Shown here: positions 20,654 through 57,257 of the stretch, one piece after another
Numbering within the stretch: the first letter of the stretch is position 1
How the letters are laid out: every line of letters starts with the position of its first letter
Source: an uncultured Butyricicoccus sp.
Lineage (GTDB): Bacteria > Bacillota > Clostridia > Oscillospirales > Butyricicoccaceae
Assembly: GCA_944384655.1 (NCBI GenBank)
Contig: CALWUF010000060.1
Span: forward strand, 6,102 to 70,101
Reading direction: 5' to 3'
DNA length: 64,000 nt
Program-made: the position numbers and the translations under genes
Notes under the pieces: model-generated
What the model saw: the letters and a program-made list of their open reading frames with translations, nothing else
What the model was told of the DNA's origin: nothing
Database searches by the model: none

Positions 20654-20743
20654 AGTCATCCCTCCTCCCTGATGTTATATGCAAATTATCATTGCGTTTT
20701 GCTCCAAAACCGCCTACAATAACAACGAAAGGAAGGAATCGCC

Positions 20744-21220
20744 ATGAGAAACACCACACTGTGTTATATCGAACAAAATGGTAAGTATCTGATGCTTCAC
20801 CGCACAAAAAAAGAAAATGACCAGAGCCATGACAAATGGTTGGGGATCGGCGGCAAATTTGAGGACAAGGAAAGCCCGGAAGAATGCATCCTGCGCGAGA
20901 CGCGCGAGGAAACCGGTCTGACCCTGACAAGCTACCGCTACCGCGGCATTGTCACCTTCGTCTCGGATATCTGGGAAACGGAATATATGCATTTGTTTAC
21001 TGCAGATGGGTTTACAGGTACCCTGACAGACTGCGATGAAGGGGAGTGCCAGTGGATCCCCCGTGAAACACTGCTTTCACTGCCCATGTGGGAAGGCGAT
21101 CGTATTTTCCTAAATCTGTTGTTCGACCCGAAACAACCGTTCTTTTCGCTCAAGCTGGAGTATCAAAAGGATACCCTGATCTATGCTGCAAAAGATGGCA
21201 TTGCACTCCCGTTGAACTGA
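20744..21220 (+). CDS. Nudix hydrolase, MutT/8-oxo-dGTP diphosphatase-like (element cargo)
   Basis: Nudix box GGKFEDKESPEECILRETREETGL. SD AGGAAGGA. Stop is 5 nt before the right inverted repeat. Confidence 0.9.
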   Translation: MRNTTLCYIEQNGKYLMLHRTKKENDQSHDKWLGIGGKFEDKESPEECILRETREETGLTLTSYRYRGIVTFVSDIWETEYMHLFTADGFTGTLTDCDEGECQWIPRETLLSLPMWEGDRIFLNLLFDPKQPFFSLKLEYQKDTLIYAAKDGIALPLN

Positions 21221-41298: not shown

Positions 41299-42678
41299 TC
41301 ATCGCATAAACATACGGACGAGCTTTTCCTGCAACGGTGTATACGGCTGATAGCGCATGGGCAGGTCCAACCATGTTTTTTTGTCTACGATACTCTTGTG
41401 GTGGGAAAATGCATCAAAACCCGTTTTTCCGTGATACGCGCCCATACCGCTTGCACCCACGCCGCCAAAGCCCATGTTCGTCGTTGCAAGATGGATAATG
41501 GTGTCATTCACACAGCCGCCTCCAAATGCACAGATCTGTGTGACATTGCGCACTGTTTTTTTGTCCTCTGTAAACAGATAAAATGCAAGTGGATGTGGAC
41601 GTGCATTGATGTTGTCCAAGGCATCTTTCAGCCGGTCATAGGTCAATATTGGCAGCACAGGACCGAAAATTTCTTCCTGCATGGCAGGGTCATCCCAATT
41701 TGCCGGACATAAGACCGTCGGTTCAATGCGCAGGGAAGATCTTTCGGTTCGACCGCCATGCACAATGTTTTCGGGAGAAATCAATCGGCTGATCCGGTCA
41801 AAATGTTTTTCATTGATAATTTTTCCATATGCCTCGTTGGCAAGTGGATCTGCGCCGAATTGCCGCCGAATCTCGCGCCGGATCGCAAATATCAGTTCAT
41901 CTCGAATCGCTGCGTCACAATAGATATAATCCGGCGCAACACACGTCTGTCCGCAATTGAGAAATTTCCCAAACACAATGCGGCGCGCAGCCAGATTGAT
42001 TTTTGCCGTCTTATCCACCACACAAGGGCTTTTTCCCCCCAGTTCCAGCGTGACAGGGGTCAAATACTCTGCCGCATGGCGCATAACTTCCCGCCCGACT
42101 GACTGGCTGCCTGTAAAAAAGATATAATCAAACTGCTGATTTAACAAACTTTCATTTTCTTCCCGTCCACCGGTGACTACGGTAACATATTCAGGTGAAA
42201 AACACTCCGCAATGATTTCACGCAACACTTCACTGGTATGTGGGGAATACGCACTCGGTTTGACAACTGCTGTATTGCCCGCCGCAAGCGCATCAACCAA
42301 TGGATCGAGCGTCAGCATAAACGGATAATTCCAAGGGCTCATAATCAGCGCGACACCATAGGGTGACGGCTTGATATAGCTGCGCGATGCATACTGTACC
42401 AAGGGTGTACGCACACGCCGTTCGCGCACATACTGCCTGACATGTCGGCTCATATATGTCAGCTCACTATATACCATGCCGATTTCGCACATATAACTCT
42501 CCATCCGGCTTTTGCCCAGATCGGCATACAATGCCTGTTCGATTTCAGCTTCATGCCGTATCATCGCATCCTTTAGCCGGTTGAGCGCGGCAATGCGGCG
42601 CTCAACCGGCAATGTTTTTCCACTTGTGAAGTACGCCCGCTGCGCCGACACAATTTTTTCAATTTCTTCCGGCTTCAT
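41299..42678 (-). CDS. NAD(P)+-dependent aldehyde dehydrogenase (class 3-like)
   Basis: SPWNYP, FTGS, TLELGGKSP, GQTCVAPDY, EEIFGP. Confidence 0.93.
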   Translation of the reverse strand: MKPEEIEKIVSAQRAYFTSGKTLPVERRIAALNRLKDAMIRHEAEIEQALYADLGKSRMESYMCEIGMVYSELTYMSRHVRQYVRERRVRTPLVQYASRSYIKPSPYGVALIMSPWNYPFMLTLDPLVDALAAGNTAVVKPSAYSPHTSEVLREIIAECFSPEYVTVVTGGREENESLLNQQFDYIFFTGSQSVGREVMRHAAEYLTPVTLELGGKSPCVVDKTAKINLAARRIVFGKFLNCGQTCVAPDYIYCDAAIRDELIFAIRREIRRQFGADPLANEAYGKIINEKHFDRISRLISPENIVHGGRTERSSLRIEPTVLCPANWDDPAMQEEIFGPVLPILTYDRLKDALDNINARPHPLAFYLFTEDKKTVRNVTQICAFGGGCVNDTIIHLATTNMGFGGVGASGMGAYHGKTGFDAFSHHKSIVDKKTWLDLPMRYQPYTPLQEKLVRMFMR

Positions 42679-43034
42679 ATATATCCTCCATGCCAAGAAT
42701 CCTAAATGATTTCTGATATCTCTGAGCAAGCCCATGTGGAACAGTATACCGCATACGGGGCAAATGTGCAATCGCATGCACATAGCCGACAGTAAACTCA
42801 GATCGAAAAAGCAATTTTTCATCTGTTTGGGAATCGCAATGGATCGAATTATTTCAAATTCTTGCTTTATTTTATTTTTTTCACAAATGTCTTTTATTTG
42901 TATAAAATAAATTTGTATTTTTCTATATTTTACCCAAAAATATTCTTATTTACTCAAAAAAATTTTCGCAGGATATTGTAAGACAACATACCAGTCTCGT
43001 ATTACAATAGGAATAGAGGAAGGAGAGATGCTAT

Positions 43035-43898
43035 ATGAGTTCGATAAACCCACTGTCTTCGCATCTGCGCGACAGCCGTATCCCGCAATATTGCATCAGC
43101 CACTTCATCAATGAAGAACACAATAACAAGCATTCCAGATTGCCTCATATTCACGAAGATTTTCTGGAACTGTTTTATGTCTACAATGGTAAAGGGCGTT
43201 ATATGGTAGATAACCAGTCGTATGATATCCAGGAAGGCGATATCATCATCTGTAACGCAGGCATCCTGCACGGTGAAAGTCCAACAGATACACGACATGT
43301 CCGTTCGTACAGTGTAGGCGTTTCCAATGTTGCATTTCTCGGTCTGCCAGATAACTGGCTGTGTGATGAGGACACCACACCGGTCATTTCCAGCGGAATG
43401 CTGTCAGAGCATATCGGTTCAATTTTTCGGTTGATCTATCTGCTCTCCTGTGATCAGAAAAATCTAAAAGAAACCTGTACCAGCTTGTCGCAATCGTTGC
43501 TTCTCCTGGTTTATCAAATGCTACTTAGCCGCAGTCGCACCGTGTCCATACAAACGCGCACAACTGCTTCCGCTACGGCAGATCGCATCCGTCGCTATCT
43601 GAACGCCCATTACCGCGAACCAATCACCTTAGCCTCTGTCGCAAAAACGTTACACATCAATGAATACTATCTTGCACATGTGTTCAAAGATGAATTTGGT
43701 GTACCTCCCATGCAATATGTTATGAAAAGGCGCATCGGTGAAGCGCAGGGATTGCTGATGGACACCTCTGTTCCCATCGGCGATATTGCCGACCATCTGG
43801 GCTTCAGCAGTGTCTGCCATCTAAATACCATGTTTAACAAATATGTCGGCATCCCGCCAGGGAAATACCGGCAGTCAATGCGAGAAATGAAAGAATAA
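43035..43898 (+). CDS. AraC family transcriptional regulator
   Basis: N-terminal cupin (HIHEDFLE), C-terminal double HTH (YLAHVFK..IADHLGFSS..F). Confidence 0.93.
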   Translation: MSSINPLSSHLRDSRIPQYCISHFINEEHNNKHSRLPHIHEDFLELFYVYNGKGRYMVDNQSYDIQEGDIIICNAGILHGESPTDTRHVRSYSVGVSNVAFLGLPDNWLCDEDTTPVISSGMLSEHIGSIFRLIYLLSCDQKNLKETCTSLSQSLLLLVYQMLLSRSRTVSIQTRTTASATADRIRRYLNAHYREPITLASVAKTLHINEYYLAHVFKDEFGVPPMQYVMKRRIGEAQGLLMDTSVPIGDIADHLGFSSVCHLNTMFNKYVGIPPGKYRQSMREMKE

Positions 43899-43944: not shown

Positions 43945-44913
43945 TTAATGTTTACGTGCAATTGCCTTTTCAGCAGCCGCAACGATATCTGCTGCCAGCA
44001 GATGATACTGTTCCATCAGGAAGTCCTGTGGACCTACCTGACCGAACTGGTTCTGAATGCCAATGCGTTCCTGCGGAACAAGGCATTTTTCAGTCAGCAC
44101 ATTCGCAACTGCCGAACCGAGACCACACGAAACCTGATGGTTTTCTGCGGTGACGATGGCGCCTGTCTCGCAGGCTGCCTTGAGAATCAGCTCCTCATCC
44201 AGCGGCTTCCACGTATGCATATCGATGACACGTGCAGAAATACCCTTGGCTGCCAACTGCTCCTCTGCCTTGAGCGCTTCATCTACGAGGATACCGGATG
44301 CAACGATGGTAACATCCGTACCGTCGCGCAGAGTAACGCCCTTGCCGATCTCAAATTCAGAACCGTCTGCATAAACCGTAGTGAATCCTTTGCGGATCAG
44401 GCGCATATACGACAAACCGGGCTGCTTTGCCAATTGCTTGGTCAAGGCATAGGTCTGCGCATAATCACACGAATCAATCACAATGGCATTCGGTACAGTC
44501 ATATACAACGCACAATCTTCAAACGGCATATGAGTTGCGCCGTTAAATGCTGCGGTAACGCCAGGATCAGAACCGATGACATGCACTGGGAGTTGAGAAT
44601 ATCCGGCAGACAAAAACGCCTGGTCAAACGCACGGCGAGATGCAAAGCAACCGAACGAATGAATAAATGCTTTCAGTCCAGTTGCCGCCATACCTGCAGC
44701 CACGCCCATGGCGTTCTGCTCGGCAATACCTGCATTAAATGTCTGCTCCGGGAATGCTTTCAGCAATTTGCCCGTATTGATGCAGCCCATCAAGTCACAA
44801 TCGATGTGAACAATACTCTTATCCTGTTCCATCAGTTCCAGCATTGCAGAGACATAACCGTCACGATTCGCACGGCTGTCCTTCTCATGCTTTCCAATCA
44901 ACGTATAGCTCAT
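43945..44913 (-). CDS. Transketolase, C-terminal (pyrimidine-binding) subunit
   Basis: NAGIAEQ, NGATHMPFED, VIDMHTWKPLD, TAENH. Confidence 0.92.
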   Translation of the reverse strand: MSYTLIGKHEKDSRANRDGYVSAMLELMEQDKSIVHIDCDLMGCINTGKLLKAFPEQTFNAGIAEQNAMGVAAGMAATGLKAFIHSFGCFASRRAFDQAFLSAGYSQLPVHVIGSDPGVTAAFNGATHMPFEDCALYMTVPNAIVIDSCDYAQTYALTKQLAKQPGLSYMRLIRKGFTTVYADGSEFEIGKGVTLRDGTDVTIVASGILVDEALKAEEQLAAKGISARVIDMHTWKPLDEELILKAACETGAIVTAENHQVSCGLGSAVANVLTEKCLVPQERIGIQNQFGQVGPQDFLMEQYHLLAADIVAAAEKAIARKH

Positions 44914-44926
44914 GGATACTCCCCCC

Positions 44927-45781
44927 TTACTTCTGCGCACGGATGGCTGCAAGCGCTGCCTCAGATGCTGCAATGGCCTCATCCCACTGTTCTTGCGTCG
45001 GCTGGGAAGAGTGTGCGCCAGACGGCTCTGCGAAGGTTGCGCCCTTGCCCTTGGTGGTATTCAGAATCAGGCAGGTCGGCTGACCTTTGACCTGATATGC
45101 AGCTTGAATGGCGTCATAAATCTGTTCCACATCGTTGCCATCTTCGATGTTGATGACATTCCAGCCAAATGCGTCAAATTTGGCACCAATACCTTTGCCA
45201 TGACCCATGACGTCAGCAACTGCACCGTCCAACTGGCGTTTGTTGTCATCCACCAGGCAGATCAGGTTGTCCAGCTTATAATGTGCCGCAAACTGTGCCG
45301 CTTCCCAAATCTGACCTTCATCGCATTCGCCGTCACCAACTGCAACAAAAACATGATTGTTTCTGCCCTGTGTTTTGTTTCCGAGCGCTGCGCCAACGGC
45401 TTCGCTCATGCCCTGACCCAGAGAACCAGTCGTCAGATCTACACCGATTGTTTTCATACGGTCTGTATGAGACGGAAAATCTGTGCCAGGCTGGTTGAGT
45501 GTATACGCACGTTCCATCGGGTAATAGCCTTTGAGACCAAGCGTCGCATACATAACCGGACCGCCGTGACCTTTAGACAAAACAAACCAATCGCGATCTT
45601 CCCAACGCGGATTTTTGGGATCAACGTTCATGATTTCACCATATAAAACTGCCATGGCATCTGCCATCGACATAGAACCGCCGACATGCCCAAATCCGCG
45701 CGAAGCGATAACTTTGAGCGTTTCCAGACGGATTTCCGCAGCAAAAACACGCAGCTGCTGCATCTTCTGCTTTTTATCCAT
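44927..45781 (-). CDS. Transketolase, N-terminal (ThDP-binding) subunit
   Basis: GHVGGS, DWFVLSKGH, GSLGQG, GDGECDEG..WEA, DDN. Confidence 0.93.
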   Translation of the reverse strand: MDKKQKMQQLRVFAAEIRLETLKVIASRGFGHVGGSMSMADAMAVLYGEIMNVDPKNPRWEDRDWFVLSKGHGGPVMYATLGLKGYYPMERAYTLNQPGTDFPSHTDRMKTIGVDLTTGSLGQGMSEAVGAALGNKTQGRNNHVFVAVGDGECDEGQIWEAAQFAAHYKLDNLICLVDDNKRQLDGAVADVMGHGKGIGAKFDAFGWNVINIEDGNDVEQIYDAIQAAYQVKGQPTCLILNTTKGKGATFAEPSGAHSSQPTQEQWDEAIAASEAALAAIRAQK

Positions 45782-45850
45782 GCTTACCTCCTGTTTTGAC
45801 AAAATGAAAACCCGTCCAAATGCCACGTGCACAGGACGGGCTTCTCCGCT

Positions 45851-46858
45851 TTATTCATCCAGTTGAGTTTCGTATGCTTTGAGAATCATCTCTGCCAGCT
45901 TGACAGCGCCAGTACAGTCCCCTGCTGTTGCACTAACCGACTGTTTCCCGGCCTGCACTTCATTGACAAATTGCTGCATCTCTTGATAATACGCCTCACC
46001 CCAACGGTCAAGATAATGATCGATACATTCATGCACTTCACCGCCATGCGTGAACTGTGTCACGCGGGCACGGCGCGGGGATTCACAAATACGCAATGTT
46101 CCCTTCGTGCCGATGACCTCACTTTCCACATGTGAACCATGTGGCGCAGTGCGTCCACAGTAGAAAAAGGCCGCAGCGTTGTTGTCAAACCGGACGAGAG
46201 AAAAGCCATTGTCCACGTCATGATTATTCGCAAACTGTTCAAATACATATGCACCGCCACAGGCATACGCCTTTTTCGGCTCTGCACCGAGCAGCCACCG
46301 TGCAAGGTCATAATCATGGACACCCATGTCGAGGAACCACTTGCCATTCGCCTCTGCGCGCGCGACTTGAGCCTCGCCCTGCCAGACCGGGTCAAGACTG
46401 TATCCACGGAAGAAAATTGGTGTGCCAATCTCCCCCGCGTCAATGCGGCGCTTTGCATCGGCATAGGATGCGTCAAACCGGCGCATAAATCCCACAGCAA
46501 ATACATTTCCTCCCTCAGCCGCCAGACGTTCAATTTCAGCACATTCTGCGGCATTCATGCCAGTTGGCTTTTCGATGAACACATGCAGACCTTTCTCCAC
46601 CGCAAGGCGCACATGTTCCAAATGTACATTGGTCGGCGAAATAATCGCAACGGCGTCCAATTTTGCTTTTTTCAGCATCTCCGCGTAATCGGTATATACC
46701 TCAGGCGTTTCCCACTCGCGGCGTACTTCATCCAACTTTTCCCGTGTCCGAGTGCAGACTGCCGCCAGCTCGGCGTTTGGAATGCGAAACATCAAATTCT
46801 CTGCATGTACCCTGCCGAGCGGACCCAGACCGACCAAACCAACGCGAACCTTTTTCAT
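45851..46858 (-). CDS. iolG: Gfo/Idh/MocA oxidoreductase, probable inositol 2-dehydrogenase
   Basis: GLGPLG, EKP, VGFMRRFD, DMGVHDYD. Lies in the same strand cluster as iolD/iolB. Confidence 0.75.
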   Translation of the reverse strand: MKKVRVGLVGLGPLGRVHAENLMFRIPNAELAAVCTRTREKLDEVRREWETPEVYTDYAEMLKKAKLDAVAIISPTNVHLEHVRLAVEKGLHVFIEKPTGMNAAECAEIERLAAEGGNVFAVGFMRRFDASYADAKRRIDAGEIGTPIFFRGYSLDPVWQGEAQVARAEANGKWFLDMGVHDYDLARWLLGAEPKKAYACGGAYVFEQFANNHDVDNGFSLVRFDNNAAAFFYCGRTAPHGSHVESEVIGTKGTLRICESPRRARVTQFTHGGEVHECIDHYLDRWGEAYYQEMQQFVNEVQAGKQSVSATAGDCTGAVKLAEMILKAYETQLDE

Positions 46859-46879
46859 ACCATATTCCCTCTCTGCGGA

Positions 46880-48325
46880 TCAATCGATGCGTGCAATTGC
46901 CTTTGCCAACTGCTTCTTCATCTCGAGGTTACCCTGACGTGCGATCATGATGCGCTGCGCCTGCGGGGAACCCGCACCATGCATCGACTCCGGCAGATAT
47001 CCGACAGCAGCAGTACCCATGGTCATGTTCTCAATCAGGCGCAAAACGCGCATACGATCTTCCGTCGGGACGGAAGCAACGCCCTTGAGATACTTTTCAA
47101 TATAGTCATGTGTTGCCGGATTGCGGTAATCGGCCTCAGATGGCTGTGTTACCATCAGACCACCTGCCAGATCCTGTGCCAGACGCGCAATATCATACGG
47201 GAAGCGCGTGACATTCTGCTTGCACACATTCGCCAACAGCAGATCGATCAGATAGTTGCCGGACTTTGTCTGTGTACCCTGAGATGAACATGCAATGCCG
47301 CAAGCATACAATGTCTCATTCAGATGCGTCATTTCAATGATCTTATCCTTGACATGAGATGCCTTTGCACAGCCTGCCATCTCGACGGACAATGCAGTCG
47401 CACCGATCAGGACATCGCCTACACCAACCTTGCAGCCGCCATAGGACTGTCTGTGGTAGCCTGCAAAACGCTCTACCATCATGCCTGCAAATTGCGTCTC
47501 ACCATTGAGGAAAATCATATCATTCGGGATGAAGACGCGATCAAAGATAACCAGAACTTCATGTCCGCCATACACCTTATTGCCGACATCGATGTCATTG
47601 TATTCTTCCAGTTTGCGGGTATCGCAGGACTGCCGACCAAGGATCAATGTAATACCTTCTGCATCGGTCGGGCATGCAAATGAAATGGCATACTCTTCAT
47701 CGCCCGGACGCATGGAGATGGTCGGCATAACCAGTACATAATGGCTGTTCAGATAACCGGTCTGATGCGCCTTTGCACCGGTGACATAAACGCCATCTGC
47801 TGTGCGCTCAACAACATGCAGGAACAGATCCGGATCCGCCTGTTTAGACGGAGACAAACCACGATCACCCTTGACGTCAGTCATTGCACCGTCAACCGCG
47901 AGATCTTCCTCCTGAACCATTGTCCAGAACTTCTTAAAATTCTCAAAATATGTCGTTCCACACGCCTCATCCGTTTCATAAGTGGTGGAATATACTGCAT
48001 TTGCAGCATCCATGCCAACACAGCGCTGGAAACATGCAGCGGTCTTTTGACCGAGCAGACGCTGCATCTTTACCTTGCGGATCAGGTCATCCGTAGACTG
48101 ATGCAGATGTGTAAAACGGTTTACCTTCTTGCCAGTCAGGTTGGAGGTCGCAGTCATCAAATCTTCATACTGTGGATCTTCTGCCAACTCATAGGTCGCG
48201 GCAAATGAATTGAGCGACGGGCGGACAATTGGATCATCCACAACGTTTTCGACTTTCTGACCAAAGCGGTACAGATTGAGATTCAACTTACGCAGAGATT
48301 CAATATACTGTTCTTTTGTCATCAT
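46880..48325 (-). CDS. abfD: 4-hydroxybutyryl-CoA dehydratase-like (FAD, [4Fe-4S])
   Basis: MMTKEQYIESLR, CFQRCVGMD, AMTDVKGDR, GAKAHQTG, YHRQSYGGCK, ESMHGAGSPQAQ. Confidence 0.9.
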   Translation of the reverse strand: MMTKEQYIESLRKLNLNLYRFGQKVENVVDDPIVRPSLNSFAATYELAEDPQYEDLMTATSNLTGKKVNRFTHLHQSTDDLIRKVKMQRLLGQKTAACFQRCVGMDAANAVYSTTYETDEACGTTYFENFKKFWTMVQEEDLAVDGAMTDVKGDRGLSPSKQADPDLFLHVVERTADGVYVTGAKAHQTGYLNSHYVLVMPTISMRPGDEEYAISFACPTDAEGITLILGRQSCDTRKLEEYNDIDVGNKVYGGHEVLVIFDRVFIPNDMIFLNGETQFAGMMVERFAGYHRQSYGGCKVGVGDVLIGATALSVEMAGCAKASHVKDKIIEMTHLNETLYACGIACSSQGTQTKSGNYLIDLLLANVCKQNVTRFPYDIARLAQDLAGGLMVTQPSEADYRNPATHDYIEKYLKGVASVPTEDRMRVLRLIENMTMGTAAVGYLPESMHGAGSPQAQRIMIARQGNLEMKKQLAKAIARID

Positions 48326-48356
48326 GACAATCTGCCTTCTTTCTCTTTCTTGATTT

Positions 48357-49664
48357 TTATATGTCAAGCGTTTCTCCAAAACGCTTTGCATACTCCTCCG
48401 CCAGTTCGGCACGGAATTTCGGATGCGCAATGGCAATCAAACGCTTGGCTCGTTCACGCAGCGTTTGTCCACGCAACTGCGCCACACCATATTCTGTAAC
48501 GATATAATTGACGTCGCAGCGGCTGGTGGTTACCGGACCGCCAGTTGTGATAGTCGGAACAATTTTAGATTCCGTCTCATTCCTGGTTGCCGAGTGCAGT
48601 GCAATGATGGAACGACCGCCTTTGGACAGATTTGCCCCGCGTACAAAGTCCATCTGTCCGCCAATGCCGGAAATTTGACGCAAGCCAATGGCTTCCGCGC
48701 ACACCTGACCCTGAAGATCAACCTGTACGCATGAGTTAATGGAAACAACATTGTCATTCTGTGAAATCACAGCCGGATTGTTGCAGACATCGACTGGAAG
48801 CATGCGAATGACCGGATTATTGTCCACAAAATCATACAATTTCCGTGTGCCCATAAGGAATGTCACACAAATGCGTCCCACATCCCGCTGTTTGCATTGA
48901 CCGTTGATCACACCTTTTTCAATCAGCGGCAAAACGCCATCCGATATCATTTCAGAGTGAAGGCCAAGGTTCTTTTTATCCCCAAGGAAGGAACATACCG
49001 CATCCGGTACTGCACCGATACCGAGCTGAAGACAATCGCCATCGCGCACGAGATCTGCGATATACTGGCCGATTTTCTGATCTTCCTCTGTGATTTTCGG
49101 CGGCTTGGACTCCGGCAGCGGCTCCCACGACAGCAGGAACCCGTCAATATCAGTGACATGTACAAAACTCTCACCAAATGTGCGCGGCATATTCGGGTTG
49201 ACCTCAGCGATGACTGTTTTGGCGGACTTGATCGCCTGCCAACCGTAATCGCATGAAAGTCCGATTGATACATATCCCCGCTCATCCGGAGGTGAACAGG
49301 TAAATGCGAATACATCTACCGGCATCTCGCCGTTCCGAAACATATGCGGCACATCGGAAAAGAATGCAGGTGTGTAATCCGCACGATTTTCTGCAATTGC
49401 CTTGCGCGCCGGAGCGCCGACAAACAACGCATTGTGACGGAAATGTTCCTCCATACCAGGCTGTAAATATTCGCCTGAACCGAGATAAACCATATGTGCA
49501 ACTTCTACGCCATGGAACTGTTCCGCCATACGCGCCATTGTGCGTTGGAAAATAATCGGCTCGCCGACAGCGTGACCGAATACCACACGGTCACCGTCTT
49601 GAATGACTGAGACAGCTTGTTCCGGTGTCATGGTATGTTCTTTATAATACTCTGTCCATTCCAT
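48357..49664 (-). CDS. cat2: 4-hydroxybutyrate CoA-transferase-like (acetyl-CoA hydrolase family)
   Basis: MEWTEYYK, LQLGIGAVP, GLHSEM (catalytic Glu), GIGGQMDF, IAHPKFR. Confidence 0.88.
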   Translation of the reverse strand: MEWTEYYKEHTMTPEQAVSVIQDGDRVVFGHAVGEPIIFQRTMARMAEQFHGVEVAHMVYLGSGEYLQPGMEEHFRHNALFVGAPARKAIAENRADYTPAFFSDVPHMFRNGEMPVDVFAFTCSPPDERGYVSIGLSCDYGWQAIKSAKTVIAEVNPNMPRTFGESFVHVTDIDGFLLSWEPLPESKPPKITEEDQKIGQYIADLVRDGDCLQLGIGAVPDAVCSFLGDKKNLGLHSEMISDGVLPLIEKGVINGQCKQRDVGRICVTFLMGTRKLYDFVDNNPVIRMLPVDVCNNPAVISQNDNVVSINSCVQVDLQGQVCAEAIGLRQISGIGGQMDFVRGANLSKGGRSIIALHSATRNETESKIVPTITTGGPVTTSRCDVNYIVTEYGVAQLRGQTLRERAKRLIAIAHPKFRAELAEEYAKRFGETLDI

Positions 49665-49849
49665 TGTTGATTCTCCTTCTGTATTTCGGTCGTATGTCAG
49701 TATACCGGGAAATAATTTTCCGGTAAATATCCGAGCCGATAAGAAGACGAGATCCAAACCGCAATAAAAATCAACAGTACAACAATCAGTATCCAGATTT
49801 TTTTTCGGCTTGGCATCCCGTCTCCTCCTTCTGTTATGTCAAATCGCAA

Positions 49850-50974
49850 TCAAAACGCATTGCGGTAAATATCCAAAATATCCTCCTCGCTCAACTCAAC
49901 ATAATTGTTGCCGAGCAGACGCTGCTGCGTTTCCAGGACATTCTTTGCATAAACCGGGAGTTCATCTGCTGTCACGCCATTTTCATGCAATGGGGTCTTC
50001 TTCAGCACATCATCCATCAGTTTATATAGTGTCTCCAGTGCAAATACCGGTTTACAATCCAGCTCTGCACTCAGGATCTCTTCCAGCTGATTGAGCTTTC
50101 CAATCGGTTTCTTTTCCTGATACTTGCGCATGACATCTGCAAACATCAACTGATTCGCCTGTCCGTGCGGGATATGATGCACACCGCCGAGCGGATAGCT
50201 CAATGCATGAACGGCTGCACAACCTGCATGACCAAATGCGATGCCTGCAAAGTTGGATGCACGCAGGAATTCTGCTGCATTCTTCTTCCATGCATCTTTG
50301 CTGCCCTCTGCAACGGCTGCCTTCCAACCACGCAGAATCAAAGACAAGGCGCGCTCAGAAAACAGTTCGCTCAGTGCGCATGCATTCGGGCTTAGATAGG
50401 ACTCTACCGCATGGATCATGGCATCAATCGAAGAAGTTGCAAATACACCATATGGCAAGCTTGCCAGCATGCCCGGAATCAAAGCAGCTTCATCCGCGAA
50501 CATCGCAGGGGAAACAATGCCCTGTTTTACGCCCTTGGTGGTACGGTTGATGATAGAAATATTGGTCACTTCGCTGCCTGTGCCGCAGGTGGTCGGGACA
50601 ATAACCAGCGGATGTACTTTTTTCAGCCCATCCGGCATGGCATCATACAGGTCATCTACCTTATCTTCTGCGTTTGCAACCGCCAAAACCTTTGCAATAT
50701 CGATGATCGTACCGCCGCCAACTGCAATGATGCGGTTAAATTTCTTATCTCTCAGCTCATCCAGGATGGCATCAACCATTACATCGGTCGGTTCACCCAT
50801 TCCATATTTTTCCTGAAACAGGGTCTGACAACCCAGGTTCAATTTGGAAATGGCAGGTTCATAAATATATTCATTTGTGAGAATCAAATCGTTCGCATCG
50901 AGCTTTGCTTCCTTTGCATAATCCGCAAACTGTGCGTATTCCGCGACAGCGGGAACCAGTTGAAATGCCTTCAT
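49850..50974 (-). CDS. 4hbD: Iron-containing alcohol dehydrogenase, 4-hydroxybutyrate dehydrogenase-like
   Basis: GGGTIID, PTTCGTGSE, DAMIHAVE, VHALSYPLG, PHG. Confidence 0.82.
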   Translation of the reverse strand: MKAFQLVPAVAEYAQFADYAKEAKLDANDLILTNEYIYEPAISKLNLGCQTLFQEKYGMGEPTDVMVDAILDELRDKKFNRIIAVGGGTIIDIAKVLAVANAEDKVDDLYDAMPDGLKKVHPLVIVPTTCGTGSEVTNISIINRTTKGVKQGIVSPAMFADEAALIPGMLASLPYGVFATSSIDAMIHAVESYLSPNACALSELFSERALSLILRGWKAAVAEGSKDAWKKNAAEFLRASNFAGIAFGHAGCAAVHALSYPLGGVHHIPHGQANQLMFADVMRKYQEKKPIGKLNQLEEILSAELDCKPVFALETLYKLMDDVLKKTPLHENGVTADELPVYAKNVLETQQRLLGNNYVELSEEDILDIYRNAF

Positions 50975-50991
50975 ATCCATGCGCTCCTCTC

Positions 50992-51783
50992 TCAGATGTC
51001 AGGGAAATATTTTGCATCCGGTGCGGTTACCCACTCATACTCCGGTACAACAGTCGTAACAATATTCTTGTCGTCCTGCAGGCGGATGCACCACAGATAA
51101 TACTCTGCATATCCCGGAGCAGCAGCCTGTGAATGGGTAACATTTTCCGGCATACCAGTCAGATCGTTGTTCTTTACTTTGTACGCATCATCGCCATATT
51201 CTGCCAGACCATAGCCATTTTCCGGCAGGAACTTATAATAATACAGTTCCGGTTCAACATGCTGATGCGGTGGATAGGAAGACCATTTGCCCGGGAAATG
51301 TACCACTTCACCGATAAAGAAATTGGTTTCCGGACAATTGGAACGGTCAAAGAATGTGCGAACCAGACGAGTCGAAGCCTCGTTCATCTGACCTGCGCCG
51401 CGCTCCTCGTTGGCACACAAGCAGTCCTCTGGACGCAAGAGTTTTGCTTCAAAACTGCGTGTATTTTCCGTGCGCGCAACAGCAATTTCCGCATCCGCTG
51501 TACAAGTGATGGTAACCGCTGTATTCTGCGGCACATGCAGCAAAATGGCGCCTTCATGGAAAACATCCGTGCGGAAAACAGATTCTACACCGCCGTCCCA
51601 TGCAAATGTAACGCCACCACTCATCAGGTCATATACGACCTCCTGTGCATAGTTGAAACTCATCACATCGCCTGCTGCCATCGAGACAACACCAAACTCC
51701 ATGCCCATCATTTCCGGGTTTTCAACCGCAGAAACCATTTTATTATAGCCTTTTTCAAAAGGACTCTTTGCAGTATATTTCAT
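50992..51783 (-). CDS. iolB: 5-deoxy-glucuronate isomerase
   Basis: GKWSSYPPHQH..ELYYY, HSQAAAPGY..YYLW. Confidence 0.9.
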   Translation of the reverse strand: MKYTAKSPFEKGYNKMVSAVENPEMMGMEFGVVSMAAGDVMSFNYAQEVVYDLMSGGVTFAWDGGVESVFRTDVFHEGAILLHVPQNTAVTITCTADAEIAVARTENTRSFEAKLLRPEDCLCANEERGAGQMNEASTRLVRTFFDRSNCPETNFFIGEVVHFPGKWSSYPPHQHVEPELYYYKFLPENGYGLAEYGDDAYKVKNNDLTGMPENVTHSQAAAPGYAEYYLWCIRLQDDKNIVTTVVPEYEWVTAPDAKYFPDI

Positions 51784-51804
51784 CGTATATCTCCTTTGGA
51801 ATAT

Positions 51805-51841
51805 GGCAAAGCCGCCCGCTCTGTGATCGGGCGGCTTTGCC
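51805..51841. other. Strong 14-bp hairpin between iolD and iolB
   Basis: GGCAAAGCCGCCCG-N9-CGGGCGGCTTTGCC with no U tract on the minus strand. It may be an RNA stability or attenuation element. Confidence 0.6.
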
Positions 51842-52040
51842 GAAGTAGGTGTGTAAATAGGTGTTATGAATAAAGGAATATAACCAAAGTACTGAATCAC
51901 GTTCACTCTGCATATCTGAGGAAGGAGTTCCCCATCGCAGCTTTCGCTGCGATGGGTCAATGTGAGAAAATAAGTGCATGAGAATGAATGTCACAATGTC
52001 ATGTAAAGAGAAATGCAGAGGAAATTTGGAAGTGTTGTGA

Positions 52041-53993
52041 TCAATACATTCTCGCTTCGCTGATGTACTTATCCAGGCGCTTGCGTGCTTCCTGAACCGC
52101 CTCAGACTTAGACGTAGAAGCAACGCCGATGTGCCACCAGGACTCATAGCCTTCTGCCATGGTCTTCGGCAATACCTTTGCATCGATGATGCAAGAGCCG
52201 GTTTCCTTCTTCGCGTCCTGAACTGCCTTGCGGAATTCTTCCGGGGTCTTAGCATAGAATGCCTTCATGCCATAACCTTCGCCGACCTTGCCGAAATCTG
52301 TATAGCAATACTTGCCATCCAGCTTGCCGGTCTCCTCATTGCGGTAACGCATCTCTGTCGCAAGGGAACCAACGCCGTTGCCCATCTGCAGGTTGTTGAT
52401 GCAGCCGAATGCCGTATTGTCGAATACGACAACGGTAATCTTCGCATTTTCCTGAATTGCAGTCGGGATTTCGGAGTTCAGCATCATGAACGAGCCGTCG
52501 CCGACCAGTGCATAAACTTCCTTGTCCGGCTCAGCCAGCTTGGAGCCGAGTGCACCTGCGATCTCGTAACCCATGCAGGATGCACCATATTCCATGTTGT
52601 AGGAATCCTTTGCATCGGTAACCCACAGGCGCTCCAGATCTGCCGGCAGAGAACCTGCTGCTGCAACAACAATTGCATCGTCGTCGATCTCTTCGCGCAG
52701 GATACCAACTGCATTGGACTCTGTAATGGTGCCGCCGATGTCGCGGATGAAGTCGTTCATAATCTTTTCTGTCCAGGACGGTACACACGGAACGAACTTG
52801 CCTTCGCCAAAGCCTTCGCCATGATACTGGACACCCAGAACGCTCAAGCGTTCCTTCTCCCATACTTCGCGGATTTCCTGAATCTCGGTGGTGTAACCGG
52901 ACTTATATCCTTCTGCCTTCAGACGCTTCATGATCTCTTCCAGTGTTACCTTTGCATCACCGACACAACGGGTTGCATCCAGCTTTTCTGCATGGAATTC
53001 AGAGGTGTTGATCGCCAGAACCTTGATATCCGGATTGCGGAACAGAACCCACTTGGAACCAGTGACAAAGTCATTGAAACGAGTGCCAACGCCGATGACA
53101 AGATCTGCATCCTTGCACAGTGCATTTGCTGCGAGACCGCCCGTAACGCCTACACCGCCAACCGAAAGCTCAAAGCTATCCGGCAGAGCGGAATGACCTG
53201 CCTGTGTCTGAGAAACCGGAATGTTGAATTCCTTACAGAATTCCATAACAGTCTCACCGGCTTCGGAGTAGCGAACACCGCCGCCAGAAATGAACAACGG
53301 CTTTTTAGACGCTTTAATCATCTCAACGGCCTGCTGAATTTCATACTCATCAGCACAACGGCGTGCGATGTGATGAACGCGCTTCTGGAAGAAGTAATCC
53401 GGGAACTCAAAGGATTCACCCTGTACATCCTGCGGCAGGCTGATGCAGACAGCACCACAGTTTGCCGTATCGGTCAGAACACGCATTGCGTTAATCATTG
53501 CAGGCATCAACTGCTCCGGACGGGAAACACGATCCCAATACTTGGTGACCGGCTTAAAGCAATCAGAAGCGGTAATGCTCAGATCGCTCGGAACTTCCAT
53601 CTGCTGCAAAACCGGATCCGGCTGACGGGTTGCAAAGGAATCCGACGGTAACAGCAATAACGGGATATGATTGATGGATGCAGTGAGCGCCGCTGTTACC
53701 ATATTTGCTGCGCCCGGTCCGATAGACGAGGAACAAGCGATAATCTTGCGGCGGTTATACTGCTTTGCATAGGAAATCGCCACATGCGCCATGCCCTGCT
53801 CGTTGCGTCCCTGATATACTCTCAGATGTCCTGGATCCTCATCCAACGCCTGACCCAGACCAACGACCATGCCGTGACCGAAAATTGTGAAAATACCATC
53901 CACGAACGGCTCTACCTTGCCGTCCATTTCGATGTACTGTTGGTTCAGGAACTTAACGACTGCCTGACCGACTGTCATCTTCGTCTTGCTCAT
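52041..53993 (-). CDS. iolD: 3D-(3,5/4)-trihydroxycyclohexane-1,2-dione acylhydrolase (ThDP)
   Basis: MTVGQAVVKFL, IFGHG, QGRNEQGMAH, SSSIGPGAAN, RQPDPVLQQ, SCMGYEIAG, GDGSFMM, SWWHIGV. Confidence 0.95.
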   Translation of the reverse strand: MSKTKMTVGQAVVKFLNQQYIEMDGKVEPFVDGIFTIFGHGMVVGLGQALDEDPGHLRVYQGRNEQGMAHVAISYAKQYNRRKIIACSSSIGPGAANMVTAALTASINHIPLLLLPSDSFATRQPDPVLQQMEVPSDLSITASDCFKPVTKYWDRVSRPEQLMPAMINAMRVLTDTANCGAVCISLPQDVQGESFEFPDYFFQKRVHHIARRCADEYEIQQAVEMIKASKKPLFISGGGVRYSEAGETVMEFCKEFNIPVSQTQAGHSALPDSFELSVGGVGVTGGLAANALCKDADLVIGVGTRFNDFVTGSKWVLFRNPDIKVLAINTSEFHAEKLDATRCVGDAKVTLEEIMKRLKAEGYKSGYTTEIQEIREVWEKERLSVLGVQYHGEGFGEGKFVPCVPSWTEKIMNDFIRDIGGTITESNAVGILREEIDDDAIVVAAAGSLPADLERLWVTDAKDSYNMEYGASCMGYEIAGALGSKLAEPDKEVYALVGDGSFMMLNSEIPTAIQENAKITVVVFDNTAFGCINNLQMGNGVGSLATEMRYRNEETGKLDGKYCYTDFGKVGEGYGMKAFYAKTPEEFRKAVQDAKKETGSCIIDAKVLPKTMAEGYESWWHIGVASTSKSEAVQEARKRLDKYISEARMY

Positions 53994-54377
53994 AGTTGCA
54001 TCCTCCTTAAAAATTGCATTTCATCTTGAGATTGTCTGTGCTGACATCCTCTCGTCTTTTCTTGTTCATATTATAGCATTGTGTCCAAAAACCGTCTTCT
54101 ATCTTCTTGCTTTTTTGTGCATATCTGGTGAATTGAGTTCAATTACACATCCTTGCTGTGAATTGTGCTGTTTCCACTAAATCTGGAATGCAAGTTTTCA
54201 AATTTTTGCTGTCCGTCTCATTTTTTTTTGATGATCTAACTTTCGTGTTTATCTAAAATCCTGCGAAAGCCGCCTGATTTTTTTGATATTCTTCGTTATG
54301 TTAAAAAAAACAGCAGCCTTGCAAATCCTTGCAAAGCTGCCATTGAAACCCCAAACGCCGTGATATTCTGTGTATTT

Positions 54378-54688: not shown

Positions 54689-55507
54689 TCATCCTTTTTC
54701 TTGTTGATAATTTCGGTCAAGCAAATATCGTCTGCGGTATTTTAACATTGCATAATCTGAAATGCGCTTGAGTACCGTCACATCCGTCGCACCTCCAACT
54801 GCACCGACAATCGGTGCACCCTGCAAAAACTTGGCATACAGCATATCATCCGAAAGCGCCTTTGCAGTTTTGTGAATCTGTTCATCCAATCGGCTGGTCA
54901 GGCGTTCGGTTTCTTCCGGCGAACGCTGCTTGGCGCCGCGCATGCTCCAACACATCGCATTCATATCGTCATCACGCTGCTGCATCTCCGAACCGCTATA
55001 CAGGGCAGTTTCAATCAGCCGGAGTTGAAACAAGCGTTCTTCCATACAATCATACTCATACCCGAAGCTGAGTGAAATTTCATACAGATTCTTTAGAACG
55101 ACACTGACAAACAGCGGGATGTCCGGAATACCCACACCGAGCAGCCCCAATCCAATCCCTTCGACAGAGGACACCAGCAGGTTTAATCGAGCACTGTTTC
55201 CCGCCTTTCTGCGAAACGCACGCACATGCCGGCGATCCTGGCGCACCTTTGCCGCATATTCCGCAATTTCATAATCCTCACGCCGTTTCTGTTTGTTATA
55301 GGTCTTCTCAATGACACCTGTGCCTTTTTCAAAAACCAATTGAAACGCCTTCACAAATGCCGTATCCAGCTTGCTTTGCAAACCGTCGGGAACAAATTTT
55401 TGTAGTTTTCCAAGCACATTTTCTCTTTGTTCGCTGTGTTTTTGAATATATTTTTCCTGTTTTCGAGTCAGGTCTTTCCATTCCTTTTCCCAAAGATCAC
55501 GTTTCAT
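54689..55507 (-). CDS. EcsC family protein
   Basis: EGIGLGLLGVGIPDIP..YGYEY-like motif, KFLQGAPIVGAVGG. Confidence 0.8.
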   Translation of the reverse strand: MKRDLWEKEWKDLTRKQEKYIQKHSEQRENVLGKLQKFVPDGLQSKLDTAFVKAFQLVFEKGTGVIEKTYNKQKRREDYEIAEYAAKVRQDRRHVRAFRRKAGNSARLNLLVSSVEGIGLGLLGVGIPDIPLFVSVVLKNLYEISLSFGYEYDCMEERLFQLRLIETALYSGSEMQQRDDDMNAMCWSMRGAKQRSPEETERLTSRLDEQIHKTAKALSDDMLYAKFLQGAPIVGAVGGATDVTVLKRISDYAMLKYRRRYLLDRNYQQEKG

Positions 55508-55511
55508 TCCA

Positions 55512-56582
55512 TCACTCCATCTGACGCTTTTTTCTCAACAGTTTCCGTCCTGCACATTGGTCAGCATCTATGCGCCATTGACAGACTGCACAATCCAGAC
55601 ATCTGCCTGTATCGCGTCCCGCGAGTGCATCCGCCGCCCAAGACGGATTGACCAACGTGCTGCGACCGATATCGACCATATCCACACCGGTACGCTCGAG
55701 AACGCCGTGTGCGTCTTCTGCCACACGCATGCCATTGACTGCAAAGACCGGGATAGAAACCCGTCGTTTGATTTCTCCTGCCGCATAAATAATATCTTTA
55801 TATGGGAAATCATCCGGTTTCACCGGTTCATCTTCACCAGTAAAGCCATACGAAATATCCAAAAAGTCAATGCCATGCGCTTCCAATGCCTGCGCATGAC
55901 GGATGCCGTCCGCCAATGTCGGCTCAAATGCGCCCAGCCGAATACCTATAACAAAATCTTCCGAAACAATTTGACGGATACCGTCTACAATTTCTGTGAT
56001 AAACAACTCTGGATGTATCCCATATCGGTCATCCCTTTGATTGATCCGATGATTGAGAAACTGACACATCAGATAGCTGTGACAACCATGCAGTTCTACA
56101 CCGTCATAGCCAGCTTCATATGCACGTCTCGCGGCATCGATAAATGCCTGCTGTATACGCGCAATATCTTCTTCCTGCATTTTCACGCCGTGTTTTTCGA
56201 TCCCGCCCCGGCGCAGAATATATGTATCCGGACAAAACGCATGTTCTTCTATGCCAACGATTCCTGCATGATGAATCTGAACAAAAATTGGACAGCCCTC
56301 CGCATGCACCGCTTCGGTGATCCGGCGCAAACCGTCTATTTGACTGTCCTCCCAAATGCCGAGCTGTGTATCTGCCAGCCGCCCCTCTCGCGTGATGCAG
56401 GTTGCTTCCTGAATAATCAATCCCGCACCGCCATGCGCCATTGCACGGTAATGTTCTACATGGCGATCGCTCACAACACCGCTCCCATCCGTCCAATGAT
56501 AGCACACCATCGGCGGCACACAAATCCTATTGCGAATACGGGTTTTTCGAATGAAAAAATTGTCATGTAATGTCTTCTTCAT
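55512..56582 (-). CDS. NADH:flavin oxidoreductase (old yellow enzyme family)
   Basis: NRICVPPM, QIHHAG, GVELHGCHSYL..FL, NQRDDRYG. Confidence 0.92.
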   Translation of the reverse strand: MKKTLHDNFFIRKTRIRNRICVPPMVCYHWTDGSGVVSDRHVEHYRAMAHGGAGLIIQEATCITREGRLADTQLGIWEDSQIDGLRRITEAVHAEGCPIFVQIHHAGIVGIEEHAFCPDTYILRRGGIEKHGVKMQEEDIARIQQAFIDAARRAYEAGYDGVELHGCHSYLMCQFLNHRINQRDDRYGIHPELFITEIVDGIRQIVSEDFVIGIRLGAFEPTLADGIRHAQALEAHGIDFLDISYGFTGEDEPVKPDDFPYKDIIYAAGEIKRRVSIPVFAVNGMRVAEDAHGVLERTGVDMVDIGRSTLVNPSWAADALAGRDTGRCLDCAVCQWRIDADQCAGRKLLRKKRQME

Positions 56583-56657
56583 GATTTGCCTCCCTATGAC
56601 GCTTTTTTCGCCGCTGCTATGTAAAAAACCGGCGAAACTGCTTCGCCGGATCAGGAA

Positions 56658-57257
56658 TCAGTTTTTCTGTCGCAATTGTCCGAGAACCAGTTGTTTACAC
56701 TGTTCAAAATAATCGTCGAGTGCAAAAGCATCTTCGTCTACAAGATATTGTAATGTTGCACCCTCCATCATAGAAACCATCAATACACTTAAAAACCTGC
56801 GCCGATGCTGTGAAACCTGCGGCGCATACCGCGCAATGACACGGCTGATTTCTTCGCGCCACTGACGAAAGGAAACAGCAAATCGTTCACGAATTTCCTC
56901 ATCCAGATGCGTCTGTGTCCAGAAATCAATTTCTGCATAGTCATATTTGGTCTCATACAAAATGAATTGTTTTTTCTGTTCAAAAAAGATATCGAGTTGA
57001 GCATCCAGTTCCGCATCCGCCTGCTCACGCAGTTCTGCACGGATATCCAGACAACGCTGCTGCAATCGATGCAGCACAGCCAACAAGAGATCCCGTTTGG
57101 ATTTGAAATAATAATGAATATTCGATTGAAAAAGACCCGCATATTGCGCCACAAGGTGGATCCGCGTGCCGCTGATTGTGTGCTCCTGTACGACGTCCAG
57201 CGCAGCATCAAGAATTTTGTCCTCTGTTGACATCGCCTTATCACTTTGTAGTTTCAT
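56658..57257 (-). CDS. TetR/AcrR family regulator
   Basis: ILDAAL..VAQYAG..SNIHYYFKSKRDL HTH. Confidence 0.9.
   Translation of the reverse strand: MKLQSDKAMSTEDKILDAALDVVQEHTISGTRIHLVAQYAGLFQSNIHYYFKSKRDLLLAVLHRLQQRCLDIRAELREQADAELDAQLDIFFEQKKQFILYETKYDYAEIDFWTQTHLDEEIRERFAVSFRQWREEISRVIARYAPQVSQHRRRFLSVLMVSMMEGATLQYLVDEDAFALDDYFEQCKQLVLGQLRQKN

Follow-up and report, generated by a model that had tools for sequence, protein, structure and literature searches.

Known routes of inositol fermentation

The breakdown of myo-inositol has been described in several forms: the literature already holds the canonical pathway, its DUF2090 aldolase variant, the propionate route of Anaerostipes, and a butyrate proposal for Dysosmobacter welbionis. 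The subject here is a run of eight genes at positions 43945-53993 of a 64-kb stretch of DNA from an uncultured Butyricicoccus sp. (contig CALWUF010000060.1); this whole stretch is called the window below. In this run, genes for inositol breakdown stand together with those of a split transketolase and of a 4-hydroxybutyrate-type module. On balance, we think it probable that they encode a transketolase-dependent branch of myo-inositol fermentation, in which the C4 remainder of the sugar acid enters butyrate synthesis via the 4-hydroxybutyrate-type enzymes.

The canonical system, iolABCDEFGHIJ of Bacillus subtilis, shares with the proposed route the steps of IolG, IolE, IolD, and IolB that lead to 2-deoxy-5-keto-D-gluconate (DKG), and the iolD of the window is a full equivalog. 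The identity to the versions from canonical clusters is 52-60% for IolD and 30-40% for IolB. The two systems differ after DKG: the window is without IolC, the IolJ/DUF2090 aldolase, and IolA, and the cut that we propose is made by a transketolase between C4 and C5 instead of by an aldolase between C3 and C4. The products would be a C2 ketol unit and a C4 acid, in place of the canonical dihydroxyacetone phosphate and malonic semialdehyde.

Two gut anaerobes come closer in physiology. Anaerostipes (Bui et al., Nat Commun 2021, PMC8355322) also ferments inositol anaerobically, with the same upper pathway and a lower part built on CoA-transferase and acyl-CoA chemistry; however, it uses IolC and IolJ, cuts between C3 and C4, and converts the C3 fragment to propionate, with neither transketolase nor AbfD. 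The other is D. welbionis, which, like the source of the window, is a member of the gut Oscillospirales; it turns inositol into butyrate and acetate and lacks the canonical iolJ and iolA. Its G+C content is 58.9%, whereas that of the window is approximately 42-52%, and a different scheme has been proposed for it (Lee et al., Gut 2026, PMC13311982).

The second half of the operon has its model in the 4-aminobutyrate/succinate module of Clostridium aminobutyricum and C. kluyveri. This module comprises 4-hydroxybutyrate dehydrogenase, AbfT/Cat2, and AbfD, acting in the same order of aldehyde reduction, coenzyme A (CoA) transfer, and radical dehydration. The proposed substrates of the window enzymes differ by an extra hydroxyl group at C3, and the product of AbfD would be acetoacetyl-CoA, not crotonyl-CoA.

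A precedent for the transketolase itself is found in the sulfo-transketolase and D-apiose pathways. There, a dedicated split transketolase encoded in the operon takes a C2 ketol unit from an unusual ketose and so replaces a kinase and an aldolase, and a reductase of the iron-dependent alcohol dehydrogenase (Fe-ADH) type handles the aldehyde product. In the window, by contrast, the ketol unit would come from a carboxylate sugar acid, DKG, and the aldehyde would be carried on as a CoA ester to butyrate synthesis. A full-text literature search, which did not extend to subscription-only papers, retrieved no paper that describes inositol breakdown by way of a transketolase or that names 3,4-dihydroxybutyryl-CoA as a substrate of AbfD in nature.

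An operon joining inositol and 4-hydroxybutyrate genes

Eight consecutive open reading frames, all on the minus strand and arranged head to tail, occupy positions 43945-53993, with the first gene at the 53993 end. A first-pass annotation of this DNA had proposed such a same-strand run from iolD to tktC, and this is confirmed: a family could be assigned to each of the eight, and they form one transcription unit. The families were named by Pfam and NCBIfam profile scores with their cut-offs, and matches to solved structures were used for the finer names. Comparison with orthologues moved five of the starts (those of the iolB-like gene, cat2, abfD, tktN, and tktC), and the refined coordinates are the ones given here.

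The operon opens with iolD (52041-53993), which encodes 3D-(3,5/4)-trihydroxycyclohexane-1,2-dione acylhydrolase, a thiamine diphosphate (ThDP) enzyme of 650 amino acids that scores 876 bits with TIGR04377, for which the cut-off is 715. It is followed by a gene for a cupin of the KduI/IolB family (50992-51783, 263 amino acids; Pfam PF04962, 1e-47), presumed to be the isomerase that converts 5-deoxy-glucuronate to DKG. It reaches 94 bits with the equivalog TIGR04378, under the cut-off of 205, and would thus be a divergent IolB.

The three genes that come next form the 4-hydroxybutyrate-type module. The first encodes an Fe-ADH of the 4-hydroxybutyrate-dehydrogenase type (49850-50980; Pfam Fe-ADH), a putative 3-hydroxy-4-oxobutanoate reductase. 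The second encodes a CoA-transferase of the Cat2/AbfT family and of the 4-hydroxybutyrate type (48357-49664, 435 amino acids, with the N- and C-domains of Pfam AcetylCoA_hydro), a candidate 3,4-dihydroxybutyrate CoA-transferase. The third is abfD (46880-48325, 481 amino acids), whose product belongs to the 4-hydroxybutyryl-CoA dehydratase/vinylacetyl-CoA isomerase family (HpaB/AbfD) and scores 750 bits to 1U8V. After them stands an iolG-like gene for a GFO/IDH/MocA dehydrogenase assigned by Pfam (45851-46858, 335 amino acids), with 280 bits to TIGR04380 against a cut-off of 355; among the iolD loci compared, this gene lies within the operon in the Butyricicoccus lineage only. The last two genes encode the split transketolase, with tktN (44927-45781, 284 amino acids; Pfam Transketolase_N, 2e-55) for the ThDP-binding subunit and tktC (43945-44913, 322 amino acids) for the subunit with the Pyr and C-terminal domains, which carries the signature GSDPG/AFNGATHM.

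The operon is transcribed in its natural setting. RNA contigs of four chicken-gut metatranscriptomes are unbroken over 43.9-54.05 kb and end at 54046-54052 in all four runs, with coverage near zero upstream. No strong terminator was found inside the eight-gene run. Its upstream boundary lies at 54046-54344 (minus strand), where a strong hairpin of 16 bp at 54344-54309 terminates the preceding gene and is followed by a promoter-like site. Given the continuous RNA cover and its sharp upstream stop, the eight genes behave as one operon that is expressed in vivo.

Within the transcript, the RNA depth over iolD is approximately 1.6-2.4 times that downstream in all four metatranscriptomes, which may reflect partial termination or processing. 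The gap between iolD and the iolB-like gene spans 257 nt (51784-52040, minus strand) and holds two GC-rich hairpins, at approximately 51955-51930 and 51842-51806, neither of which is followed by a T-run. No family was matched when the operon and its leader were compared with Rfam.

As for the source of the DNA, the organism is close to Butyricicoccus porcorum; against strain BB10, the identity is 99% for iolD and 94-98% for the other genes.

References for IolC, IolJ, IolA, IolE, the major facilitator superfamily (MFS) transporter, and two TIM-barrel families were taken from related loci and validated against NCBIfam, and a tblastn search with them found none encoded in the 64-kb window. The sole match was that of IolA, at a generic, family-level 23%, to an aldehyde dehydrogenase gene outside the operon. 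The claim that the run goes without a kinase, an aldolase, and a malonate-semialdehyde dehydrogenase therefore holds for the window. The same annotation took the missing genes to be explained by the new route; this is not quite right, because iolE and the transporter, whose lack it had not noticed, are absent as well. Neither SucD nor GabT, as a source of succinic semialdehyde, is encoded in the operon.

Recurrence of the gene set across genomes

A scan for IolD, with one genome per species, gave 80 loci, in which open reading frames were called by a codon-usage score, clustered into families, and named by NCBIfam. No locus of D. welbionis was among the 80. The loci fall into two clean types. 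The canonical type has the IolD most distant from that of the window (the 52-60% identity given above) and the order J-C-B-D-E-A-G. The transketolase type has a closer IolD and carries D-B-Fe-ADH-cat2-abfD-tktN-tktC, with no iolC or iolA. The transketolase occurs in 22 of the 80 loci and iolC in 20, and they are never found together; iolA, too, is absent from all 22 loci of the transketolase type. The dehydratase gene abfD is likewise present in 22 loci, 16 times with the transketolase and not once with iolC, and most of the loci that have abfD without transketolase are contigs that end just past abfD. The first-pass annotation had raised the question of co-occurrence in other genomes, and these counts answer it: the set does recur.

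The reciprocal scan, in which metagenomes were searched with a TktC alignment, also gave 80 loci, and none of these metagenome transketolase loci has iolC. Among the 36 that extend over at least 12 kb, Fe-ADH is found in 23, cat2 in 20, iolB in 19, abfD in 17, and iolD in 15.

Butyricicoccus and Agathobaculum (A. butyriciproducens DSM 100391 among them) have the full set of iolD, iolB, Fe-ADH, cat2, abfD, tktN, and tktC, and Faecalicatena contorta, Aequitasia blattaphilus, Bilifractor, and further metagenome-assembled genomes of Clostridia have it with the genes arranged differently. It is thus kept and reshuffled across Oscillospirales and Lachnospirales, and it is found in part in Clostridium and Enterococcus. 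Since the genes have been rearranged and yet retained across two orders, the set can be regarded as a functional unit. In some genomes, genes for butyrate synthesis lie inside the cluster: thl-crt-hbd in F. contorta, bcd-etfB in Bilifractor, and thl-crt-hbd with acyl-CoA dehydrogenase and TER in Enterococcus sp. AZ109. The order in F. contorta is E, gntR, tktN-tktC-B-Fe-abfD-cat2-D, and then thl-crt-hbd-pfk-aldolase-E.

Perhaps the run is only a mosaic, in which iolD, iolB, and iolG are part of a canonical pathway with its iolC, iolJ, and iolA elsewhere, the 4-hydroxybutyrate module is there to ferment succinate or 4-aminobutyrate, and the transketolase is a pentose-phosphate pathway enzyme. 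We consider this extremely unlikely. Close homologues of AbfD do exist in free-standing 4-hydroxybutyrate clusters, and the absence of iolC and iolJ is known for the 64-kb window, not for the rest of the genome. However, the eight genes share one transcription unit, the set recurs in differing orders in distant lineages, it was never met with iolC or iolA in the 80 loci of either scan, and the transketolase, which adjoins iolB, Fe-ADH, and cat2, is of a distinct subfamily.

A transketolase with an altered substrate pocket

The features that set this subfamily apart are found in TktC, whose closest match among solved structures is the Carboxydothermus split transketolase (6YAJ). The ThDP-binding, Pyr, and C-terminal domains are recognized by Pfam, and the catalytic glutamate (E411 in Escherichia coli) is present within a conserved IAEQN motif. 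Two positions of the substrate pocket depart from the ordinary enzyme in all 19 iol-linked TktC sequences. At the site of the phosphate-binding histidine, the motif GSDPG has an aspartate in place of E. coli H461; and where ordinary transketolases read GEDG, these read AFNG, with an asparagine replacing D469, the residue that reads a substrate hydroxyl. This signature holds even in sequences with 46-52% identity to the TktC of the window, and it is absent from 6YAJ and from human transketolase. Other positions (R358, H473, and R520, in E. coli numbering) are kept, and S385 is changed to cysteine in the Oscillospirales clade. Judged by sequence, the signature marks the iol-linked transketolases as a distinct subfamily whose substrate pocket appears to have been remodelled. 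A TktC profile search returned only close relatives from Butyricicoccus and Agathobaculum.

The proposed route from inositol to butyrate

With the identities of the genes, the structure and transcription of the operon, its conservation across species, the exclusion of iolC and iolA, and the signature of the transketolase established, it is possible to outline a pathway; from DKG onward, we infer every substrate and product, the acceptor of the transketolase, and the reaction of AbfD. The upper part would follow the known steps, IolG and IolE first, and then IolD and the IolB-like isomerase, to yield DKG. This compound, CH2OH-CO-CHOH-CHOH-CH2-COO-, can be viewed as the skeleton of xylulose 5-phosphate in which a carboxylate has taken the position of the phosphate ester, and it should have the same D-threo configuration because it is a derivative of D-gluconate.

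The split transketolase would move the C6-C5 ketol unit of DKG to a sugar-phosphate acceptor, with neither phosphorylation by IolC nor the split between C3 and C4 by IolJ, and the C2 unit would enter the pentose-phosphate and glycolytic pool with no ATP spent. What remains would be (R)-3-hydroxy-4-oxobutanoate (malic semialdehyde, OHC-CHOH-CH2-COO-), the carboxylate analogue of D-glyceraldehyde 3-phosphate. Fe-ADH, with NADH supplied by IolG, may then reduce this aldehyde to (R)-3,4-dihydroxybutyrate, and the Cat2-type transferase would make the CoA ester with acetyl-CoA or butyryl-CoA as donor. In the last specific step, AbfD would remove the hydroxyl group at C4 by a ketyl-radical mechanism to give the enol of acetoacetyl-CoA, which could be reduced to butyrate or cleaved by thiolysis to acetate with a gain of ATP. 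As written, the scheme is in redox balance, and the ATP that IolC would consume is spared.

The chemistry asked of AbfD is not without parallel. An alpha-hydroxy radical that expels a neighbouring hydroxyl group is the chemistry of diol dehydratases, and the hydrogen that AbfD abstracts, the 3-pro-S, is still present in (R)-3,4-dihydroxybutyryl-CoA.

Evidence from 13C labelling

Published labelling experiments allow the position of the carbon-carbon cut to be read. Anaerostipes rhamnosivorans possesses IolC and IolJ and induces both; from [4,5-13C2]inositol it forms [3-13C]propionate, 13CO2, and formate, all of them singlets, and from [4-13C]inositol mainly 13CO2 (PMC8355322). Because these products are singly labelled, C5 of inositol must become C3 of DKG and C4 must become C4, with the aldolase cutting between the two; the same mapping was derived independently from the D-gluco configuration of 5-deoxy-D-glucuronate. 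The same laboratory used the same substrates with D. welbionis, where [4,5-13C2]inositol gave [1,2-13C]acetate and [3,4-13C]butyrate, and [4-13C]inositol gave [2-13C]acetate and [4-13C]butyrate (PMC13311982). Here, the C3-C4 bond of DKG survives, since C4 and C5 of inositol stay paired in C3-C4 of butyrate. This pattern is the exact prediction of a cut between C4 and C5 followed by conversion of C1-C4 of DKG to acetoacetyl-CoA, and aldolase cleavage does not predict it.

The first-pass annotation had suggested that an inositol-to-butyrate fermentation might already be published for an Oscillospiraceae species; it exists, as the work of Lee et al., with a different, aldolase-based scheme in which neither transketolase nor AbfD is mentioned (PMC13311982). 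This scheme relies on IolC, on an aldolase of the class II fructose-bisphosphate type, and on an oxoacid dehydrogenase, after which two molecules of acetyl-CoA condense, and it calls for unidentified substitutes for IolJ and IolA. The decarboxylation that it contains, from [1,2-13C]3-oxopropionate to [1,2-13C]acetate, would lose C1 and clashes with the labelling reported in the same paper. The D. welbionis data therefore fit poorly with the aldolase scheme of the authors and better with a route via transketolase and AbfD. Of all the evidence, the labelling hints most strongly at a real route; for the gene set described here it is only a hint, which holds if D. welbionis carries these genes. 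The idea put forward at the outset, that a transketolase replaces IolC, IolJ, and IolA and that the C4 acid is passed to a 4-hydroxybutyrate-type module, is in this way supported by both comparative and isotopic evidence, its chemical steps being our inference.

Points against the route and other explanations

A number of observations weigh against this proposal, and some of them invite other explanations. In D. welbionis, traces of DKG 6-phosphate were detected by liquid chromatography-mass spectrometry, which points to a kinase in that organism (PMC13311982). For the co-occurrence counts, the Fisher p-values of 9e-4 and 1e-7 are indicative only, as the loci are phylogenetically related. In the transketolase, the replacement of His461 by aspartate offers no obvious means of binding a carboxylate. 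Lastly, the set is not always complete. A transketolase without AbfD is found in loci of C. tyrobutyricum, C. algifaecis, C. minihomine, and Enterococcus, and two loci (L048 and L167) have AbfD with no transketolase in view.

Loci of the first kind lead to the question of whether AbfD is needed at all. In the sulfo-transketolase pathways, one transketolase is used twice, with an isomerase between the two steps. By analogy, the C4 aldehyde could be isomerized to 4-hydroxy-3-oxobutanoate, cut again to malonic semialdehyde, and reduced by Fe-ADH to 3-hydroxypropionate, with AbfD and Cat2 as mere passengers. This would suit the clostridial loci that have iolB, tktN, tktC, and Fe-ADH and neither cat2 nor abfD, as well as the transient 3-hydroxypropionate that has been published for inositol in enrichment cultures from the hen gut. 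However, 16 of the 22 transketolase loci also have AbfD and Cat2, in several arrangements, AbfD has no role on C3 substrates, and a second cut would part C4 of inositol from C5, contrary to the pattern seen in D. welbionis. We regard this possibility as very unlikely.

AbfD itself gives no sign of an unusual substrate. In comparison with the enzyme of C. aminobutyricum (1U8V), the [4Fe-4S] cluster ligands C99, C103, H292, and C299 are all conserved, and so are the catalytic residues E257, Y296, E455, T190, R90, and K300. No residue was found that separates AbfD of iol loci from AbfD in the ordinary context, those defined by mutagenesis being identical, and homologues with 84-90% identity occur in plain Fe-ADH-abfD-CoA-transferase-thiolase-crotonase clusters without iol genes. 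With no context-specific residue and with such close homologues in plain clusters, the sequence does not speak for a new reaction; it is the genomic context that suggests 3,4-dihydroxybutyryl-CoA rather than 4-hydroxybutyryl-CoA as the substrate.

Cat2 has its best solved structures in the 4-hydroxybutyrate CoA-transferases 3EH7 and 3GK7 (E ~1e-136) and is approximately 60% identical to its counterpart in plain AbfD clusters. For Fe-ADH, the best solved structure is Cvir-Hbd2, the selective 4-hydroxybutyrate dehydrogenase of C. viride (E 6e-104). Compared with the Fe-ADH beside AbfD in ordinary 4-hydroxybutyrate clusters, however, it is a separate paralogue with 40-42% identity, and it accompanies iolD and iolB even in loci without transketolase or AbfD. 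Because Fe-ADH has diverged and stays with iolD and iolB, and AbfD is undistinguished, the aldehyde reductase looks specific to the pathway and AbfD generic.

These findings can also be accommodated by a second explanation, in which the transketolase step is the same, and the C4 aldehyde is deoxygenated to succinic semialdehyde, so that Fe-ADH, Cat2, and AbfD would work on their textbook substrates (succinic semialdehyde, 4-hydroxybutyrate, and 4-hydroxybutyryl-CoA) toward crotonyl-CoA. All three resemble the usual enzymes of the 4-hydroxybutyrate pathway. The conserved catalytic residues of AbfD, its high score to 1U8V, and the absence of any iol-specific residue would then need no comment, nor would the best matches of Cat2; the net redox balance would be equal, and the labelling in D. 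welbionis would be identical. Nevertheless, the conserved set holds no candidate dehydratase or ene-reductase to remove the hydroxyl group at C3, and the Fe-ADH is a paralogue distinct from that of ordinary AbfD clusters. For these reasons, this explanation appears fairly unlikely to us.

Another question is where the pathway begins. The lack of iolE and of an inositol transporter in the 64-kb window is a further difficulty for a route that starts from myo-inositol, and iolE, the MFS transporter, and the TIM-barrel genes are also absent at the loci of B. porcorum and of related Butyricicoccus (L007-L011). This organism might then start from a cross-fed downstream intermediate, from another cyclitol, or from a deoxy-sugar acid, which we judge to be distinctly unlikely. 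An iolG-like gene lies inside the operon, IolD requires the dione made by IolE, and in relatives iolE and a transporter adjoin the cluster. If the pathway does start from myo-inositol as proposed, iolE must be encoded elsewhere in this genome. A search for IolE homologues gave no match labelled B. porcorum, and a contig of 700-880 nt with ~85% nucleotide identity to a Butyricicoccus iolE (L012:8349-9169) was found in four gut metagenome runs (X2, X3, X4, and X9). Its depth tracks that of the Fe-ADH contig of the organism at ~1.6-2.3 times, and it may represent a possibly duplicated iolE elsewhere in the same genome; this is a weak hint.

Taking these points together with the labelling, we hold, tentatively and at slightly less than an even chance, the full form of the transketolase proposal: that a hitherto unrecognized transketolase subfamily using DKG as ketol donor, and an ordinary AbfD that dehydrates (R)-3,4-dihydroxybutyryl-CoA to acetoacetyl-CoA in the manner of a diol dehydratase, make up a real, ATP-saving route from inositol to butyrate in gut Clostridia, D. 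welbionis included.

Variants of the cluster and neighbouring genes

The related loci differ in what they add to the set and in what they leave out. Those of Agathobaculum have an extra G-E-TIM-MFS-G group and two AraC genes upstream, and L167 is fully colinear from transporter to AbfD (araC, G, MFS, TIM, E, G, D, B, Fe, cat2, abfD). In the latter, a second CoA-transferase with AcetylCoA_hydro domains and a glyoxalase-family gene (19431-20744) follow abfD, in the place usually taken by the transketolase. In some Butyricicoccus-like genomes, the set seems to be divided between two modules: L012-L015 and L050 have araC-D-B-Fe-E-G, and L087 and L088 have cat2-abfD-G-tktN-tktC with G-MFS-TIM. One human-gut organism carries gntR-tktN-tktC-Fe-cat2-pfk alone.

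In Clostridium (L052 of C. tyrobutyricum, L055 of C. algifaecis, and L170-L173 of Clostridium sp.), iolB-tktN-tktC are found with iolD-iolE-iolG. Some of these loci add Fe-ADH, phosphofructokinase, and several MFS genes, and none has cat2 or abfD nearby; the cells may excrete the C4 product or process it with enzymes encoded elsewhere. The cluster of Enterococcus sp. AZ109 (L059, 395-16527) reads cat2-tktN-tktC-thl-crt-hbd-MATE-thioesterase-acyl-CoA dehydrogenase, and then iolD-transporter-iolE-iolG-TER; it is without AbfD and Fe-ADH, a variant that may avoid the oxygen-sensitive dehydratase.

A phosphofructokinase gene stands in or beside the transketolase cluster in L045 (15572-16576), L060 (15150-16373), L110 (13556-14506), and L170 (17395-18342). 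A class II aldolase gene adjoins it in L045 and L060, such an aldolase gene is also present in L056, and none of these loci has IolC. In clostridia, a sedoheptulose-bisphosphate bypass replaces transaldolase, and the pair of phosphofructokinase and aldolase may serve this bypass in handling the C2 units, not the function of IolJ.

The isomerase step also shows variation. A protein of ~220 amino acids of the RpiB/LacAB family (NCBIfam PRK09273) is encoded next to iolD in L034, L037, L038, L045, L046, L048, L056, and L062. These are exactly the eight iolD loci without an IolB cupin; IolB is present in 59 loci, and in none do both occur. The RpiB-like protein is therefore a candidate for a non-orthologous 5-deoxy-glucuronate isomerase.

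Around the operon of the window, a gene for an AraC-family regulator (43035-43898, plus strand; Pfam AraC_binding and HTH_18) is convergent with the operon end, and such a gene lies beside iolD in 39 of the examined loci. Divergent from it and outside the operon is the aldehyde dehydrogenase gene mentioned above (41299-42822, minus strand). Its best match is the MdlD-type benzaldehyde dehydrogenase, with 431 bits against a cut-off of 550, and it is not of the IolA or SucD type. Directly upstream of the operon (55512-57257, minus strand) are genes for a flavin oxidoreductase of the Old Yellow Enzyme family (55512-56582) and a TetR regulator, with an EcsC gene beside the pair (54689-55507). All three lie outside the highly transcribed block and are absent from other iol loci. 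The flavin oxidoreductase was considered as an ene-reductase for a 4-hydroxybutyrate route and rejected, as it is outside the transcription unit and not conserved in other loci. The rest of the window is ordinary chromosome, with ileS, divIVA, miaA, mutL, mutS, miaB, cysteine and methionine genes, and hemB.

Significance

The gut is rich in inositol derived from dietary phytate, and of the short-chain fatty acids, butyrate has the closest ties to the health of the host. The only published pathway from one to the other has two unfilled enzyme gaps, and the route proposed here, if true, would fill both with named genes. Transketolases would gain a new class of donor, and AbfD, a radical enzyme, a new reaction; each inositol would cost one ATP less than in the canonical route. 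Should it operate in D. welbionis as well, the published aldolase-based scheme would need correcting. Finally, if the route is true, the combination of iolD, a transketolase with the GSDPG/AFNG signature, and abfD would be a marker that predicts inositol-derived butyrate in Butyricicoccus, Agathobaculum, Faecalicatena, and their relatives in the microbiomes of humans, pigs, and poultry.

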